Positions 1 through 6,795 of a DNA stretch of 6,795 nt are shown piece by piece. The DNA lies in the NCBI RefSeq assembly GCF_053078305.1, contig NZ_CP166876.1; one strand, given 5' to 3'. The notes beneath the pieces were generated by a model. It was not told where the DNA came from, did not search any database, and saw only the letters and a program-made list of their open reading frames with translations. The position numbers and the translations under genes were made by a program. Origin of the DNA: a plasmid. Each line of letters starts with the position of its first letter. Position 1 is the stretch's first letter.

Positions 1-915
1 ATGAGCGCCGCGCTTCAATACTTCGAAGAAAATTTACCTCATCGTCCCTATCACACGGATGATCTCGCTTTCGGCCTTCGCATCTCCGGCAAAGGGCGCG
101 CTCTTCTTGCGCGCTACATCCAGCAGAACCAGCCACATGCGCAGTTCTGGCTGGTTTTTGACATTGACCGCGAGGGGGCTGCGATTGACTGGAGCGACCG
201 GAACGCTCCCGCGCCGAACATCACCGTAAAAAATCCTGTGAACGGTCATGCTCACCTGCTCTACGCGCTCAATATCGCCGTGAGAACCGCGCCGGACAGC
301 TCGGTTAAGGCGCTGAAATACGCCGCTGCGATTGAACGTTCGCTGTGTGAGAAACTTTGTGCTGATGTGAACTACAGCGGACTGATTTGCAAAAACCCGT
401 TCCACCTGGAATGGCAGGTGATGGAGTGGCGAGAGGAAGCCTATACCCTCGATGAACTGGCTGATTATCTCGATTTGAGTGCCTCAGCGCGCCGTAGCAT
501 CGATAAACATTACGGGATGGGGCGAAACTGCCACCTGTTCGAAATGACGCGCAAATGGGCTTACAGGGCGATTCGTCAGGGCTGGCCAGCATTCTCACAG
601 TGGCTTGATGCTGTGATTCAGCGTGTCGAAATGTACAACGCATCGCTTCCCGTTCCGCTTTCTCAGGCTGAATGTCGGGCTATTGGCAAGAGTATTGCGA
701 AATACACGCACAGGAACTTCACGCCGGAAACTTTCGCACAGTATGTGGCTGATACGCACACGCCAGAAATTCAGGCTACACGCGGTCGCAAGGGCGGTTC
801 TAAGTCTAAGCGCGGCACAGTAGCTACATCAGCACGCACGCTGAAACCTTGGGAGAAATTAGGGATCAGTCGCGCCTGGTATTACCAACTGAAAAAACGA
901 GGTCTCGTAGAGTAG
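1..915 (+). CDS. rep: ColE2-type plasmid replication initiator Rep (plasmid-specific primase)
   Basis: 304-aa ORF starting at window position 1. The N-terminus (MSAALQYFEENLPHRPY...QQNQPHAQFWLVFDIDREGAA...NITVKNPVNGHAHLLYAL) matches what I remember of ColE2/ColE3 Rep proteins, and its size is typical of them. A ColE2-like origin lies directly 3' of the stop codon, as in that family. Confidence 0.88.
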   Translation: MSAALQYFEENLPHRPYHTDDLAFGLRISGKGRALLARYIQQNQPHAQFWLVFDIDREGAAIDWSDRNAPAPNITVKNPVNGHAHLLYALNIAVRTAPDSSVKALKYAAAIERSLCEKLCADVNYSGLICKNPFHLEWQVMEWREEAYTLDELADYLDLSASARRSIDKHYGMGRNCHLFEMTRKWAYRAIRQGWPAFSQWLDAVIQRVEMYNASLPVPLSQAECRAIGKSIAKYTHRNFTPETFAQYVADTHTPEIQATRGRKGGSKSKRGTVATSARTLKPWEKLGISRAWYYQLKKRGLVE

Positions 916-965
916 ACCAAATAAGCCTATATCAGATAACAGCGCCTTTTTGGCGTCTTTTTGAG
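916..965 (+). other. ColE2-type replication origin (Rep binding and primer synthesis site)
   Basis: The sequence 'accaaataagcctatatcagataacagcgcctttttggcgtctttttgag' begins right after the rep stop codon. It closely resembles the ColE2/ColE3 minimal origin as I recall it (AGATAAGCC..TATCAGATAACAGCGCC), and the position immediately downstream of rep is the family arrangement. Exact boundaries are approximate. Confidence 0.6.
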
Positions 966-1038
966 CAGCTTGGTTTGTTGCTATTTCCCTCGTTGAATCC
1001 CGCAATGGCGCGGCTTTCCGCATGATTGAGGTGGTAGC

Positions 1039-1095
1039 GCTCGCCGCAGTCTCATGACCGAGCGTAGCGAGCGAATGAGCGAGGAAGCGCAAAGG
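1039..1095 (+). other. Putative single-strand initiation / primosome assembly site (ColE1/pMB1-like segment)
   Basis: The segment 'gctcgccgcagtctcatgaccgagcgtagcgagcgaatgagcgaggaagcgcaaagg' is about 75% identical, by eye, to the pMB1/pBR322 segment GCTCGCCGCAGCCGAACGACCGAGCGCAGCGAGTCAGTGAGCGAGGAAGCGGAAGAGCG. In ColE1-type plasmids that segment lies just downstream of ori in the region of the primosome assembly sites. Here it is in the same orientation and about 100 bp downstream of the ColE2-type ori. Function is inferred, not demonstrated. Confidence 0.4.
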
Positions 1096-1139
1096 TGTCG
1101 GTGGTGCATGTGGCACTTACGCGCCGGGGTTTCTCCGTT

Positions 1140-1406
1140 CTACGGTTTCGCAGGTGGTTTGGGTAGCTTCTCCAGCTCGTTAATCAGCGGTTGTATCCGG
1201 TTCACATCGGCCTGTCTTGTGACTTCCTTTCGCAGGAACTGGAGCAGGAACGCACGCAGTTGCGCCTCTTCCGGCCTCCGTACCCTCGCCAGCATGGCAG
1301 CCCCCACAATGACTTTTTGCGCCGTGTCCAGGCTCCGGCTCTTCGCCTTCAGGCGCTGTAATCTGGCCTCAGCTTCGGCAATCTTCTGTTCGAGTGTTCT
1401 GCTCAT
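1140..1406 (-). CDS. Mobilisation accessory protein, MobC-like
   Basis: 88-aa minus-strand ORF (MSRTLEQKIAEAEARLQRLKAKSRSL..KVIVGAAMLARV..) with a GGAG ribosome-binding site about 8 nt upstream of the ATG. It is divergent from the relaxase gene with the candidate oriT between them, which is the RSF1010 mobC-oriT-mobA arrangement. The basic, coiled N-terminus and the KV(I/L)VGA motif resemble RSF1010 MobC as I recall it. Confidence 0.65.
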   Translation of the reverse strand: MSRTLEQKIAEAEARLQRLKAKSRSLDTAQKVIVGAAMLARVRRPEEAQLRAFLLQFLRKEVTRQADVNRIQPLINELEKLPKPPAKP

Positions 1407-1489
1407 TTTGTGACTCCGTGCGCGGTGAAAAATCGCATTTTAGCGCGTCACTGGTAGTTGCAAAACCGAACTGGCATAATGCACGGCAC

Positions 1490-1545
1490 ATCACGAAGTG
1501 CGCACTTATACAATCTCCACTTCGTTTCGATTGTGTGCGCCCTGC
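1490..1545 (+). other. Candidate origin of transfer (oriT) with MOBQ-type nick region
   Basis: It lies in the intergenic region between the divergent mobC-like and mobA genes. It contains a perfect 12-bp palindrome 'aagtgcgcactt' (1496-1507), an inverted repeat 'acgaagtg' (1493-1500) / 'cacttcg' (1518-1524), and 'gtgcgccct' (1535-1543), which matches the RSF1010/R1162 nick region (TAAGTGCG/CCCT). The inferred nick is between 1539 and 1540. Confidence 0.5.
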
Positions 1546-1584: not shown

Positions 1585-3804
1585 ATGGCGATTTATCATC
1601 TCAGCATGAAAATCATTTCGCGAAAAAACGGCTACAGTGCCGTTGCTTCTGCTGCCTACCGTTCCGGCTCTGTCATACCCGATGACCGTACCGGATTAAC
1701 CCACGATTACACCCGTAAACGCGGCGTTGATGATGCGGTCATTCTCACCCCTGCGAATGCACCGTCCTGGTGTGGTGACCGTTCCGTTCTCTGGAATGCG
1801 GTCGAGAAAGCCGAACAGCGCCGGAACTCCCAGCTGGCAAGGGAGATTGAACTCGCCATTCCCCGTGAGATTTCCCGCGAGGCCGCACGGGAGACCGTTC
1901 TCGCTTTTGTCCGGGAAAACTTTGTCAGTCGGGGCATGATTGCCGATGTGGCGTTCCATCACATGGACCGGACCAATCCCCATGCGCACATCATGCTGAC
2001 CACGAGAGCTGTCGGGGAAACGGGATTCGCAGGAAAGGTCAGGGACTGGAACGACCGGGCACTCGCCGAGACGTGGCGCGCATCATGGGCTGACCATGCG
2101 AATAGAGCGCTTGCGAACGCCGGCTACCAGGAAGAGATAGACCATCGTTCATACGAGCGTCAGGGACTGGAGAAAGCGCCGGGCCTTCACCTCGGAAAGG
2201 CTGCCTGTGCGATGGAAAAACGGGGAATGGAAACAGAACGCGGTGAGCAGAACCGTCTGATTAACAGCCTTAACCTGGAAATACAGGTTTCCCGCACGCA
2301 GCTTGCTCTCAGGACGGTTCAGGAAGCGCAGCGTAAGCGGGAACTCAGCGATGCTGCACGTCGTGCAGCGGAAGCCCTTAACCTGACCATTCCCGCTGCG
2401 AATGCCTCAGCGGATACCCTGCGGGAATTCATTGCCACGCTGCCGCAGGAATGCGGGAACGCGTGGGAGATGACCCCGGAGTTCCTGGCGATGAGCGGGA
2501 AGGTGAACGACATCGAACGTGAGGGGAATGCGCTGCTGAAAGAGCAGGCCATTCTCGAAAAGGAGATGACCGGACTCAAAAAAGCACGCCCTGTCGCGTC
2601 CCTTCTGTCAGAGATTCCCCTGATGACATGGGCTGAACCGGAATACCGCAAAAGACAACTCCGTTTCTGGAAACTCGGGAAACAGATTGAATCTCTTCGC
2701 CGCACCTACAGGGCCGTGAAAGAACGGGACATTCCCGCCCGTCGTCAGGCCTTTGAAACGCAGTGGAATACGTGGATTGCGCCGGGAATGGCAGAGCTGA
2801 AAGAAAAACTGTCAGCACGGGAAGCGGAGCGGCGCAGGGAGGAAGCCGAAGCGGAAGCGCGCCGGAAGGAACAGGAGCATGAGGCGCGGCTGAAACGTCA
2901 TGATAACCACCGTCTGAGCCGTGAAACGGCATTAGTCGGGGTTATTACGGAGCTGGGGCGTGCCAGAGAGCCGGGAACGGGCAGGATAACCCGCTACATG
3001 ATGCTGAGTAACAGGGCCGGAGAATTCACGGTATGGGGTGATGAGCTGGCGCATTACCCCCGGAGTGTTCATGACCCGGTGAATGTTTATCTGTCGCCTG
3101 GCGGGGCTGTGATGGTCACGGATATACACGCAGGGCGGCCTGAATCTCATGAGACAATGGCGCGGCCTGAGCGTGTGAGAATGTATTCCGGTGCGACGGT
3201 CCGGCATGTACTGGAACAGATGCGCCAGGGGTGGCCCTCTTACGGTTTTCCGGCGCTGCCGCATCACTGGCCGGATAATTTTTATTTCAGCAACGACCGC
3301 AGGCCCGTAGCCTCTCCGCTACCGTCAGCGCACCGGGTGGATATCACCGCTGATGCGGCACCGGAACAACTCATGCCTGTTGTATTTTCGAGAGAGGGAA
3401 ACAGCAGGACGCTGAATCTGTTGTTGTGCAAAGGGCCGGAGGAAATGCTTGTCGGGTTTGTTCGCCGGGAAGGAGGGTTTTGCCCCGTTCTTGTGCTTCC
3501 GTCGCCGGATTACAGTCATCTGATGGTCAGCACCATCACGGAGAACGGGGTATGCCTGGCAGGTTACGGAGAAGCTATAAACCATGATGAGGATACTCCG
3601 TACCCACCGGAACCGCACCTGATGCAGTTCCGGCTCAAAGGCCATCATGACAGGCTTTTGGCTGCTGTCCACAAACCGGAAGAGATGCCGGATTATCTCT
3701 TCCGTCAACTCGGTTTTAATCAGACCTGGCATGAGTGGAAGCGGGACGAACAGCACAGGCAACAACAACGCCGCCCCGGGCACTTCCGGGGCATGAGTAT
3801 GTGA
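1585..3804 (+). CDS. mobA: Mobilisation relaxase, MobA/MobL family (MOBQ-like), with long C-terminal extension
   Basis: The N-terminus MAIYHLSMKIISRKNGYSAVASAAYRSG is the conserved MobA/MobL start, with a tyrosine at residue 25 (codon 1657-1659), the same position as the catalytic Tyr25 of RSF1010 MobA. A histidine-triad motif HHMDRTNPHAHIM sits around 1957-1995. The start is set at the in-frame ATG at 1585; the six-frame ORF begins at 1498 but that upstream stretch overlaps the oriT and lacks the family N-terminus. About 440 residues follow the relaxase domain. Confidence 0.88.
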   Translation: MAIYHLSMKIISRKNGYSAVASAAYRSGSVIPDDRTGLTHDYTRKRGVDDAVILTPANAPSWCGDRSVLWNAVEKAEQRRNSQLAREIELAIPREISREAARETVLAFVRENFVSRGMIADVAFHHMDRTNPHAHIMLTTRAVGETGFAGKVRDWNDRALAETWRASWADHANRALANAGYQEEIDHRSYERQGLEKAPGLHLGKAACAMEKRGMETERGEQNRLINSLNLEIQVSRTQLALRTVQEAQRKRELSDAARRAAEALNLTIPAANASADTLREFIATLPQECGNAWEMTPEFLAMSGKVNDIEREGNALLKEQAILEKEMTGLKKARPVASLLSEIPLMTWAEPEYRKRQLRFWKLGKQIESLRRTYRAVKERDIPARRQAFETQWNTWIAPGMAELKEKLSAREAERRREEAEAEARRKEQEHEARLKRHDNHRLSRETALVGVITELGRAREPGTGRITRYMMLSNRAGEFTVWGDELAHYPRSVHDPVNVYLSPGGAVMVTDIHAGRPESHETMARPERVRMYSGATVRHVLEQMRQGWPSYGFPALPHHWPDNFYFSNDRRPVASPLPSAHRVDITADAAPEQLMPVVFSREGNSRTLNLLLCKGPEEMLVGFVRREGGFCPVLVLPSPDYSHLMVSTITENGVCLAGYGEAINHDEDTPYPPEPHLMQFRLKGHHDRLLAAVHKPEEMPDYLFRQLGFNQTWHEWKRDEQHRQQQRRPGHFRGMSM

Positions 3805-3957: not shown

Positions 3958-3988
3958 CTGTACATAAAACCAGTGGTTTTATGTACAG
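3958..3988 (+). promoter_or_regulatory. Overlapping dual LexA (SOS) boxes of a colicin operon
   Basis: The sequence 'ctgtacataaaaccagtggttttatgtacag' contains a first box CTGTACATAAAACCAG (3958-3973) and a second box overlapping its last base and ending in ACAG at 3988. This is the characteristic tandem overlapping SOS operator found upstream of colicin genes (CTGT-N8-ACAG type). Confidence 0.9.
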
Positions 3989-4036
3989 TATTAATCATGT
4001 AATTAATTGTTTTAACGCTTAAAAGAGGGAATTTTT

Positions 4037-5707
4037 ATGAGCGGTGGCGATGGACGCGGCCATAACACGGGCGCGCATAGCACAAGTGGTAACATTAATG
4101 GTGGCCCGACCGGGCTTGGTGTAGGTGGTGGTGCTTCTGATGGCTCCGGATGGAGTTCGGAAAATAACCCGTGGGGTGGTGGTTCCGGTAGCGGCATTCA
4201 CTGGGGTGGTGGTTCCGGTCATGGTAATGGCGGGGGGAATGGTAATTCCGGTGGTGGTTCGGGAACAGGCGGTAATCTGTCAGCAGTAGCTGCGCCAGTG
4301 GCATTTGGTTTTCCGGCACTTTCCACTCCAGGAGCTGGCGGTCTGGCGGTCAGTATTTCAGCGGGAGCATTATCGGCAGCTATTGCTGATATTATGGCTG
4401 CCCTGAAAGGACCGTTTAAATTTGGTCTTTGGGGGGTGGCTTTATATGGTGTATTGCCATCACAAATAGCGAAAGATGACCCCAATATGATGTCAAAGAT
4501 TGTGACGTCATTACCCGCAGATGATATTACTGAATCACCTGTCAGTTCATTACCTCTCGATAAGGCAACAGTAAACGTAAATGTTCGTGTTGTTGATGAT
4601 GTAAAAGACGAACGACAGAATATTTCGGTTGTTTCAGGTGTTCCGATGAGTGTTCCGGTGGTTGATGCAAAACCTACCGAACGTCCAGGTGTTTTTACGG
4701 CATCAATTCCAGGTGCACCTGTTCTGAATATTTCAGTTAATAACAGTACGCCAGCAGTACAGACATTAAGCCCAGGTGTTACAAATAATACTGATAAGGA
4801 TGTTCGCCCGGCAGGATTTACTCAGGGGGGTAATACCAGGGATGCAGTTATTCGATTCCCGAAGGACAGCGGTCATAATGCCGTATATGTTTCAGTGAGT
4901 GATGTTCTTAGCCCTGACCAGGTAAAACAACGTCAGGATGAAGAAAATCGCCGTCAGCAGGAATGGGATGCTACGCATCCGGTTGAAGCGGCTGAGCGAA
5001 ATTATGAACGCGCGCGTGCAGAGCTGAATCAGGCAAATGAAGATGTTGCCAGAAATCAGGAGCGACAGGCTAAAGCTGTTCAGGTTTATAATTCGCGTAA
5101 AAGCGAACTTGATGCAGCGAATAAAACTCTTGCTGATGCAATAGCTGAAATAAAACAATTTGAACGATTTGCACATGACCCAATGGCTGGCGGTCACAGA
5201 ATGTGGCAAATGGCCGGGCTTAAAGCTCAGCGGGCGCAGACGGATGTAAATAATAAGCAGGCTGCATTTGATGCTGCTGCAAAAGAGAAGGCAGATGCTG
5301 ATGCTGCATTAAGTACTGCGATGGAAAGCAGGAAGAAGAAAGAGGATAATAAAAGAGATGCTGAAGGCAAACTAAATGATGAGTTAGCAAAAAATAAAGG
5401 AAAGATACCAGGTCTAAAAATAGATCAGAAAATTAGGGGACAAATGCCAGAAAGAGGATGGACAGAGGATGATATCAAAAATACCGTATCTAACGGTGCA
5501 ACTGGTACATCTTTTGATAAGCGTAGTCCGAAGAAAACACCTCCAGACTATTTAGGTCGAAATGATCCAGCAACAGTGTATGGTTCTCCTGGTAAATATG
5601 TTGTTGTCAATGATCGTACTGGTGAGGTTACTCAGATTAGTGATAAGACAGATCCGGGTTGGGTGGACGATTCGAGAATTCAATGGGGAAATAAAAATGA
5701 CCAATAA
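4037..5707 (+). CDS. cea: E-group colicin (BtuB/Tol-dependent); C-terminal cytotoxic domain most consistent with E5-type anticodon tRNase
   Basis: 556-aa ORF with an AGAGGG ribosome-binding site upstream. The glycine-rich N-terminal translocation domain carries the TolB box DGSGW at residues 35-39 (nt 4139-4153), as in colicins E2/E3/E9. The central region is the long coiled-coil receptor-binding domain typical of E colicins. The C-terminal ~105 residues (KIPGLKIDQKIRGQMPERGW...WGNKNDQ) have no HNH motif and no histidine, which argues against the E2/E7/E8/E9 DNases; I do not recognise it as the E3 rRNase either, and it fits my recollection of the histidine-free E5 tRNase domain. It is preceded by the SOS operator and followed by immunity and lysis genes. 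Confidence 0.93.
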   Translation: MSGGDGRGHNTGAHSTSGNINGGPTGLGVGGGASDGSGWSSENNPWGGGSGSGIHWGGGSGHGNGGGNGNSGGGSGTGGNLSAVAAPVAFGFPALSTPGAGGLAVSISAGALSAAIADIMAALKGPFKFGLWGVALYGVLPSQIAKDDPNMMSKIVTSLPADDITESPVSSLPLDKATVNVNVRVVDDVKDERQNISVVSGVPMSVPVVDAKPTERPGVFTASIPGAPVLNISVNNSTPAVQTLSPGVTNNTDKDVRPAGFTQGGNTRDAVIRFPKDSGHNAVYVSVSDVLSPDQVKQRQDEENRRQQEWDATHPVEAAERNYERARAELNQANEDVARNQERQAKAVQVYNSRKSELDAANKTLADAIAEIKQFERFAHDPMAGGHRMWQMAGLKAQRAQTDVNNKQAAFDAAAKEKADADAALSTAMESRKKKEDNKRDAEGKLNDELAKNKGKIPGLKIDQKIRGQMPERGWTEDDIKNTVSNGATGTSFDKRSPKKTPPDYLGRNDPATVYGSPGKYVVVNDRTGEVTQISDKTDPGWVDDSRIQWGNKNDQ

Positions 5708-6026
5708 ATTATTTGAACATACGGTGTTATATGATAGTGGTGATGCCTTTTTTGAATTAAAAGGAAATGCTTCTATGAAGTTATCACCAAAAGCTGCAAT
5801 AGAAGTTTGTAATGAAGCAGCGAAAAAAGGCTTATGGATTTTGGGCATTGATGGTGGGCATTGGCTGAATCCTGGATTCAGGATAGATAGTTCAGCATCA
5901 TGGACATATGATATGCCGGAGGAATACAAATCAAAAATCCCTGAAAATAATAGATTGGCTATTGAAAATATTAAAGATGATATTGAGAATGGATACACTG
6001 CTTTCATTATCACGTTAAAGATGTAA
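5697..6026 (+). CDS. Colicin immunity protein (cognate inhibitor of the C-terminal nuclease domain)
   Basis: 109-aa ORF (MTNKLFEHTVLYDSGDAFFELKGN...) whose ATG at 5697 overlaps the colicin stop codon (5705-5707), the typical translationally coupled position of nuclease-colicin immunity genes. The six-frame ORF begins at 5562, but that extension lies wholly inside the colicin reading frame and is rejected. The gene is AT-rich like the cytotoxic domain. Confidence 0.85.
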   Translation: MTNKLFEHTVLYDSGDAFFELKGNASMKLSPKAAIEVCNEAAKKGLWILGIDGGHWLNPGFRIDSSASWTYDMPEEYKSKIPENNRLAIENIKDDIENGYTAFIITLKM

Positions 6027-6123
6027 ATAGTGTTATAGAATTTTATGTTTCATGGATGATTTCAACCTTTGGATTTCAGGTTTTTATGGATGAATGCCTG
6101 AGTCCATATATACAAGGAACAGT

Positions 6124-6267
6124 ATGAAAAAAATAACATGGATTATTTTATTGCTTCTTGCAGCCATTATTCTTGCTGCATGTCAGGCAAACTATATCCG
6201 CGATGTTCAGGGCGGGACTGTATCCCCGTCATCCTCAGCTGAACTGACCGGATTAGCAACGCAGTAA
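6124..6267 (+). CDS. Colicin lysis / release lipoprotein (bacteriocin release protein)
   Basis: Translation by hand gives the 47-aa protein [47 protein letters not shown], with a lipoprotein signal peptide and lipobox LAAC. It is nearly identical to the E-group colicin lysis proteins as I recall them. It is absent from the ORF track because it is short. A ribosome-binding site 'aaggaa' lies upstream. Confidence 0.9.
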
Positions 6268-6578: not shown

Positions 6579-6606
6579 GGTGCGTACAACGGGAGTTATG
6601 GTAAAT
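6579..6606 (+). other. XerC/XerD site-specific recombination core (cer-like multimer resolution site)
   Basis: The sequence 'ggtgcgtacaa cgggag ttatggtaaat' has a XerC arm identical to ColE1 cer (GGTGCGTACAA), a 6-bp central region (cer has 8 bp) and a XerD arm TTATGGTAAAT identical to cer. About 180 bp of upstream accessory sequence (about 6400-6578) includes the ARG-box-like palindrome. Confidence 0.8.
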
Positions 6607-6619
6607 GGATCGGGTTTTG

Positions 6620-6795
6620 GGGAATAATCGACAGGGTTTGCCGTTGGGTGTAGTGTAAGCGACTGAAAAACAAACGCCCCGTAAATCGTGCTCTCACCGC
6701 CAAGATTGATCACGAAATTACAGGGCGCCGGGTTCCGCGTCTCCCGATGGGAAAGCGCGGTTAGTTAAACTGTGTACCGAGAGGAATCGTAACAC
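6620..6795 (+). promoter_or_regulatory. Presumed rep leader / copy-number control region (rep promoter, antisense-RNA target), continuing into rep at position 1 if the molecule is circular
   Basis: A ribosome-binding site 'gagagg' (6778-6783) sits about 12 nt before the window end, positioned for the rep ATG at 1 across the circular junction. An imperfect stem-loop 'ccgcgtctccc gat gggaaagcgcgg' is at about 6757-6780. A candidate sigma70 promoter has -35 'tcgaca' (6628-6633) and -10 'tagtgt' (6651-6656). ColE2-type replicons control Rep translation with an antisense RNA against this leader; the exact RNA ends cannot be set from sequence. Confidence 0.35.

Follow-up and report, generated by a model that had tools for sequence, protein, structure and literature searches.

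Plasmids of the ColE1 type start their lagging strand at ssiA, a primosome assembly site that is exposed when DNA polymerase I extends the leading strand and that recruits PriA, and thence DnaB and DnaG (PMC3167613). In ColE1 and pBR322 (pMB1), the site, which also goes by the names rriA, n'-pas, and H-strand factor Y site, lies ~110 to 200 nt downstream of the switch from RNA II to DNA. Single-strand initiation (ssi) signals, including phiX174 pas, the G4-type sites, and ssiA and ssiB of RSF1010, work as folded single-stranded DNA (PMC5778457, PMC4538821). The enzymes that prime at them differ, however. The phiX174 pas is the prototype of a PriA-dependent site, whereas G4-type sites are primed directly by DnaG and the two RSF1010 sites by the RepB' primase.

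Plasmids of the ColE2 type begin replication with a Rep protein that is an origin-specific primase, and initiation requires Pol I and SSB (PMC4980987, PMC4538821). The primer is the short RNA AGA (PMC5304414), and ColE2-like initiators are defined by the combination of the domains PF03090 and PriCT_1 PF08708 (PMC6856555). In ColE1 as in ColE2, a short RNA primer is extended by Pol I to begin the leading strand, yet their initiation machineries are unrelated, consisting of RNA II and RNase H in the one and the Rep primase with a 32-bp origin in the other. Our analysis of a small colicin plasmid indicates that positions 1034 to 1122 (+), just downstream of a ColE2-type origin, are very probably a ColE2-family copy of ssiA (n'-pas), a phiX174-type, PriA-dependent primosome assembly site that would start the lagging strand.

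The plasmid and its ColE2-type origin

The window, by which we mean the whole stretch of 6,795 nt that was analyzed, is a complete circular plasmid. It matches pO111-110512_4 (NZ_AP019765.1) from E. coli O111:H- at 100%, rotated to begin at rep. The plasmid is a ColE2-type, MOBQ4-mobilizable colicin plasmid that corresponds to the 'MOBQ42 / ColE2-like' type of PMC6856555, and it is a ColE5-like relative with a tRNase colicin, not ColE2-P9 itself. The rep gene (1-915, +) was recognized as an open reading frame, through Pfam, and from the source record, which labels it 'replication initiation protein'. It encodes a ColE2-type initiator and primase that contains both the Replicase domain (PF03090, 1e-43) and PriCT_1 (PF08708, 2e-4), the combination that characterizes Rep proteins of ColE2-type (class C theta) replicons. 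A short origin with an AGA primer site lies directly 3' of rep, as in other plasmids of this type. Its conserved core, GACCAAATAAGCCTATATCAGATAACAGCGCC, occupies 915-947 (+) and includes the stretch CCTATATCAGATAACAGCGCC (925-946, +), which is kept in all ColE2-type loci that we examined; ATCAGATAAC directly follows rep in all 12 of them. Within the origin core, AGA occurs on the + strand only, at 934-936. With these two Rep domains and CCTATATCAGATAACAGCGCC placed right after rep, the ColE2-type replicon that had been proposed in an earlier note on this DNA is borne out. A consensus scan also returned a terminator-like hairpin, GCGCC-TTTTT-GGCGT followed by a T run (942-965, +), that is conserved in ColE2-type loci. 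It overlaps the origin at its right end and probably terminates rep.

A spacer (966-1033) that is variable in sequence and nearly constant in length separates the origin from the element. On the other side of the element is mobC (1140-1406, -), a MOBQ4 relaxase accessory gene identified as an open reading frame and from a homolog that bears the name mobC in plasmids of the MOBQ41 type (PMC6856555). This gene belongs to a neighboring module and is outside the ssi. The mobC-mobA intergenic region that follows (1407-1584) represents the MOBQ4 oriT, and its length of 178 bp is exactly that of the oriT fragment used in PMC6856555. An RSF1010-like motif, AAGTGCGC, can be found inside it at ~1495-1502 (+). 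The MobQ relaxase (1585-3804) was the sole NCBIfam match among the proteins of the window, and the tRNase-type colicin operon comes downstream of it, last in the order of features.

Several other observations concern the remainder of the plasmid. A palindromic pair of overlapping LexA (SOS) box-like sequences, CTGTACATAAAACCAGTGGTTTTATGTACAG, is located at 3958-3988, ~50 nt 5' of the colicin start codon, which is the usual arrangement of colicin promoters. At 6579-6606 there is a cer-like XerC/XerD recombination site, GGTGCGTACAA-cgggag-TTATGGTAAAT, with a 6-nt central region, in keeping with the cer-like multimer resolution site that MOBQ42 (ColE2-type) plasmids carry (PMC6856555). In a close relative (L001, NZ_CP075657.1), the backbone of rep, ori, ssi, and mob is identical to that of the window, while colicin E2 and its immunity gene replace the tRNase colicin (window 4037-6267), which suggests that the toxin and immunity end of the operon was exchanged while the backbone stayed constant. 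An Rfam scan of the whole window matched no family, including at ~6650-6795, where an antisense RNA I would be expected.

The ssiA-type element and its conservation

When the whole window was compared by pairwise blastn with positions 560-1900 of ColE1 (NC_001371), and viewed alongside a MAFFT alignment, one significant match emerged. It joins window 1034-1122 to ColE1 1306-1395 in plus/plus orientation, with 71 of 90 positions identical, one gap, and E = 7e-16. In ColE1, this copy falls in the region of the lagging-strand primosome assembly site, ssiA (n'-pas). The earlier note had singled out 1039-1095 as closely resembling the pMB1 sequence just downstream of the origin, had placed it in the same orientation relative to the origin, and had proposed a BLASTN comparison with pBR322/ColE1. 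In our comparison, which used ColE1 and reached pMB1 through natural copies, both the resemblance and the shared polarity were confirmed. Over those 57 nt, 48 positions are identical to ColE1 (84%), and identity is ~80% (45-46 of 54 aligned positions) to natural pMB1-like copies and one pUC-like copy (L013, L050, L110), on which the pMB1 similarity was measured. The proposed extent was too short, however. While 1039-1095 falls in the homologous core, the conserved unit reaches from ~1034 to 1122, or ~90 nt. ColE1 contains a single GACCGAGCGNAGCGAG motif, where 0.01 would be expected by chance, and ColE1-type copies were recovered with E values down to 1e-13 in a search of 7.3 Gb. With an nhmmer profile of the family, the top match (102 bits) was L001, a near-identical twin of the window that is 100% identical over the stretch with the element. 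A further similarity, between window 1165-1184 and the ColE1 rop region (19/21, E = 0.09), was judged to be a chance match.

The element has three parts. Its core (1034-1090, +), homologous to ColE1 1306-1362 and holding most of 1039-1095, contains three GAGCG repeats and GAGGAAGCGC, and it is near-invariant over 27 copies from different replicon types. A variable linker (1091-1113, +) occurs in two versions and leads to the distal conserved island CACTTACGC (1114-1122, +), which forms the 3' end of the element. The sequence CTTACGC from this island is present in copies from ColE1, IncFIA, IncX1, and Klebsiella ColRNAI plasmids as well, such that ColE1 and the window share both core and island. 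There are also substitutions that set the window apart from ColE1, namely TCTCATGA in place of TCGAACGA in the loop, GCGAGCGAA in place of GCGAGTCAG, and AAGCGC in place of AAGCGG. The last of these affects the hexamer at 1084-1089, which reads AAGCAC in other ColE2-type copies and AAGCGG in copies borne by ColE1, IncX1, and Rep_3 plasmids. In comparisons made in the 1980s, AAGCGG was the hexanucleotide common to n' sites, a noted commonality and not a proven requirement. The AAGCGC of the window departs from that hexamer, a point against the ssiA reading. By homology to ColE1, its element belongs to the ssiA (n'-pas) family. Another difference concerns the sequence before the element. ColE1 has TGTGGATAA just upstream of ssiA, but no ColE1-style DnaA box (TTATCCACA / TGTGGATAA) is readable between the origin and the ssi of the window.

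The location of the element relative to the origin is rigidly kept. We compared 12 ColE2-type loci, comprising the window and eleven others with diverged Rep C-termini, origin left halves, and downstream mobilization genes, the latter being of three different kinds. In all 12 loci the element starts 104 to 105 nt after the AGA and lies on the same strand; in ColE1, the corresponding copy begins ~116 nt 3' of the RNA/DNA switch motif GGAAAAACGCC, again on the same strand with respect to the direction in which the leading strand is made. No other ssiA-like sequence lies beside the ColE2-type origin, every ColE2-type replicon that we examined has kept the element, and origin and element occur together in 615 PLSDB records. 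Since AGA is found only on the + strand of the origin, the primer has + sense and synthesis should proceed rightward, toward the element, a direction that we derived from the literature together with the primer sequence. Extension of such a primer by Pol I would displace the + strand, and the element would thus sit downstream of the origin on the displaced strand, that is, on the template of the lagging strand. A similar arrangement was observed in an unusual setting: the 54-kb IncF/IncX1 plasmid pMO17_54 (L012, NC_019254.1) carries a ColE2-type origin and ssi at the normal 105-nt spacing (2513-2714), with no rep annotated alongside and an IS5-family element nearby, which is probably the remnant of a cointegrated small plasmid.

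Conservation is concentrated in the origin core and in two islands of the element. In an alignment of ten ColE2-type loci, scored by mean pairwise identity and invariant columns per region, the origin core showed 90% identity (18/22 invariant columns), the core of the ssi 92% (43/59), and CACTTACGC 94% (7/9). The regions between and beyond them were far less constant, with 72% identity and 20/68 invariant columns in the spacer, which had no indels in the alignment, 63% and 5/25 in the linker, and 48% and 0/18 in the 3' flank. Conservation of the ssi core and of the distal island matches that of the origin core, as would be expected for a cis element that is part of the replicon and under selection, and it is of the strong purifying kind. 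That the islands of the element were kept while spacer, linker, and flank drifted would point to selection rather than drift.

The earlier note had proposed folding the single strand in search of the characteristic hairpin. A 7-bp stem, CGCTCGC (1037-1043) with GCGAGCG (1066-1072), can form on the + strand in both the minimum free energy and consensus folds, but neither energy statistics nor covariation gave it support. The folding energy of the + strand was ordinary for its composition (z = -0.2 to -0.7 versus shuffles), and the value for the - strand (z = -2.0) reflects the same palindrome. Across 27 copies, compensatory substitutions were observed in none of 12 candidate pairs, no better than in shuffles, and RNAalifold returned the CGCTCGC/GCGAGCG hairpin without a covariation term. 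In addition, the three GAGCG repeats permit alternative stem registers. We also considered a long-range pairing of GCGTA with TACGC, from the core to the distal island. Although 86% of cells were compatible with it, there were no compensatory changes and the pairing is broken by a T-to-C change in pMB1-type copies, so it was not adopted. Because the energy is ordinary and compensatory changes are absent, we regard the element as conserved at the level of primary sequence, with the hairpin being plausible.

Proposed initiation on the displaced strand and competing readings

Our results are most consistent with a role for the element in starting the lagging strand. This had been suggested in the earlier note, and it is the best explanation when the homology to ColE1 ssiA is considered along with the apparent placement on the displaced strand. 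Here, ssi activity, PriA dependence, and the lagging-strand role are inferred by analogy with ColE1 and from the literature, in which later papers citing Nomura et al. (1991) concur that ColE2 has an ssi. Replication would begin when Rep binds the origin (915-947) and synthesizes the primer AGA, which Pol I would then elongate rightward. After ~105 to 190 nt of synthesis, the element would be exposed as single-stranded DNA on the displaced + strand, where PriA would recognize it and, with PriB, DnaT, and DnaC, load DnaB. DnaG could then prime the first lagging-strand fragment, running back to the origin, and the Pol III replisome would take over. The minimal ColE2 replicon consists of rep and ori, and for that reason the element is probably dispensable for autonomous replication. 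In the unrelated pHW126-like plasmids, deletion of an ssi is nonlethal.

An argument can be made that the element instead serves conjugation, or does so in addition to any lagging-strand role, by priming the complementary strand on transferred single-stranded DNA in the recipient. Only 18 nt separate its end from the stop codon of mobC, the 178-bp oriT is ~300 nt away, and most carriers of the family are mobilizable (3815 of the best 5000 PLSDB records). Yet the phase of the element is fixed to the replication origin, at 104 to 105 nt, whatever mobilization module follows. Furthermore, the family also occurs in nonmobilizable plasmids (426 among the same best 5000 records) and in pUC-like vector sequence. 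The MOBQ41 plasmids are informative in this regard. Their mob/oriT module is collinear with that of the window, with ~86% identity across the matched mobC-oriT-mobA stretch, but it is joined to an unrelated Rep_3 iteron replicon. In one such plasmid (L139), the element lies beside mobC on the strand opposite to that in the window. If both modules transfer the same strand, as we presume, the element can lie on that strand in at most one of the two plasmid types. The constant partner of the element would thus be the origin and not oriT, and a conjugative function is unlikely. Such a function may still apply in one of the two types (MOBQ41 or that of the window), given that the nicked strand of the MOBQ4 oriT is not defined in PMC6856555.

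Two further explanations would deny the element any function in replication. It could be a functionless relic that ColE2-type plasmids captured by recombination, from a ColE1-type plasmid or some other, and now carry passively. The family is common to many unrelated replicons, similarity between copies ends abruptly at the borders of the element, there is a mosaic breakpoint within it at ~1088, and it is probably not needed for autonomous replication, if the minimal replicon is a guide. A passive passenger would not be expected to match the origin core in conservation among diverged ColE2-type lineages while the spacer, linker, and flank around it drifted, nor to hold its position and strand in 12 of 12 loci, and we consider this reading very unlikely. 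The similarity could also reflect chance or GAGCG-rich composition, or the sequence could belong to a coding feature or to a terminator, such as that of mobC. In line with this, there are three GAGCG repeats in the core, mechanical open reading frames overlap the element (1054-1413, +, and 859-1116, -), and some records contain a 'hypothetical protein' there. However, the E values of 7e-16 in the pairwise comparison and down to 1e-13 against 7.3 Gb are not those of a chance match, and the element is noncoding in ColE1 and in many other settings, its copies differing by 1-nt indels. Neither strand of 1034-1139 contains a terminator-like site, nor was there an Rfam match. Alignment statistics effectively refute this last set of explanations, which we regard as next to impossible.

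The mosaic breakpoint deserves attention of its own. Three loci (L009, L010, and L011) are 95 to 97% identical to the window up to position 1088 and then diverge. The two versions of the linker, GCAAAGG... and ACCAGGG..., follow the type of the downstream mob gene, while CTTACGC is kept in both (window versus L003 and L007-L011). The element sits exactly at the junction of replicon and mobilization modules, its proximal half traveling with the replicon and its distal half with the mob type. It is conceivable, though rather unlikely, that the ~90-nt ssiA-type element doubles as a portable patch of homology at which unrelated plasmid modules recombine. A weaker reading of the sequence differences is that the ColE2 subtype, with AAGCRC and a rigid 105-nt phase, is tuned to initiation by Rep and Pol I and is recognized differently from the ColE1 subtype.

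Distribution, annotation, and significance

The element was not confined to ColE1- and ColE2-type plasmids. Using a 141-nt query, we found the family in at least 5000 PLSDB records, the majority of which are Col plasmids, small and mobilizable, from Escherichia, Klebsiella, Salmonella, and Shigella. Carriers include ColRNAI, Col156/ColE2-type, Rep_3/MOBQ41, and IncX1 replicons and IncFIA plasmids, in which the element is next to repE, along with a 2.7-kb MOBV mini-plasmid and a Pantoea plasmid. The earlier note had suggested an exchange of modules between ColE1- and ColE2-type plasmids; the element is indeed common to both, but that view is too narrow, as many enterobacterial replicon types carry it. 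Of 5426 complete E. coli genomes, 2586 contain the element, in 5290 plasmid and 65 chromosomal places; genomes that have it carry a median of 2. It is thus present without annotation in about half of these genomes, usually on several co-resident plasmids.

The orientation of the element in iteron plasmids is different. Mini-F/IncFIA, IncX1, and Rep_3 iteron plasmids carry the same ~90-nt family, with 48 of 57 identities over the core in the IncFIA copy, but their element faces outward from the origin, opposite to ColE1 and ColE2, and a primer made there would extend away from the origin. In the pIGWZ12-like Rep_3 plasmid (L139), the ssi at 328-420 (minus strand) faces outward from four 22-bp iterons (4068-85), an AT-rich stretch, and a DnaA box. 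In an IncFIA plasmid (L015), two copies flank repE on opposite strands, at 2501-2590 (+) and 3982-4087 (-). Primosome assembly sites reportedly flank ori2/repE of mini-F, a finding ascribed to Imber, Low, and Ray in 1983. An element that faces away from the origin suggests a start of the leading strand, and the geometry of iteron plasmids would fit that function, unlike the lagging-strand geometry of ColE1 and ColE2.

Outside this family, we detected no sequence similarity to phiX174 pas, G4-type ssi, or RSF1010 ssiA and ssiB. An apparent phiX174 match, Z35638.1, was not counted as phiX174 DNA, being a 3164-bp record with a match level the same as that of presumed vector contamination. Matches in the phage collection were limited to records whose size and level of match led us to regard them as vector or plasmid DNA. 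A pattern scan of 298 Gb of genome contigs with GCCGCAGN{7,11}CGANCGN{1,2}AGNGAG proved too permissive; nearly all of its 120 loci were chance matches in GC-rich Actinobacteria and similar genomes, and the nhmmer family profile kept ~10 real copies. Some ColE1/pMB1-type copies were on short nonenterobacterial contigs, including those of Pseudovibrio stylochi (L050, 3.5 kb), Cutibacterium porci (L084, 2 kb), and Streptomyces chilikensis (L036, a 3.9-kb scaffold), and on L110, which has pUC-like lac-junction sequence. These copies look like vector or plasmid contamination of assemblies.

In the RefSeq, PLSDB, and GenBank records that we examined, the element was either without annotation or under a 'hypothetical protein' call. 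The mechanical open reading frames 859-1116 (-) and 1054-1413 (+) cross the origin and ssi of the window, and in at least one public record (L006, 1187-1412) a 'hypothetical protein' is annotated there. These frames are probably spurious calls over a noncoding replication element.

The identification is correct, but both the element and its location were known before. Nomura et al. (1991, Gene 108:15-22) report, by their title, eleven ssi in F, R6K, R100, and ColE2 plasmids, and the element described here is almost certainly the same as their ColE2 ssi, judging from its sequence and location. The copies beside IncFIA repE and in IncX1 plasmids, which are R6K-related IncX, also fit that title. 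With the ColE1 signal worked out in the 1980s and the ColE2 ssi reported in 1991, no open question is resolved by our study. The practical value lies in annotation, since the element is among the commonest noncoding features of plasmids in E. coli. More generally, its presence would explain how a replicon whose own primase serves the leading strand only can recruit the DnaB, DnaG, and Pol III of its host for the lagging strand. In doing so, a ColE2-type plasmid would borrow the same PriA-dependent signal that is used by ColE1.
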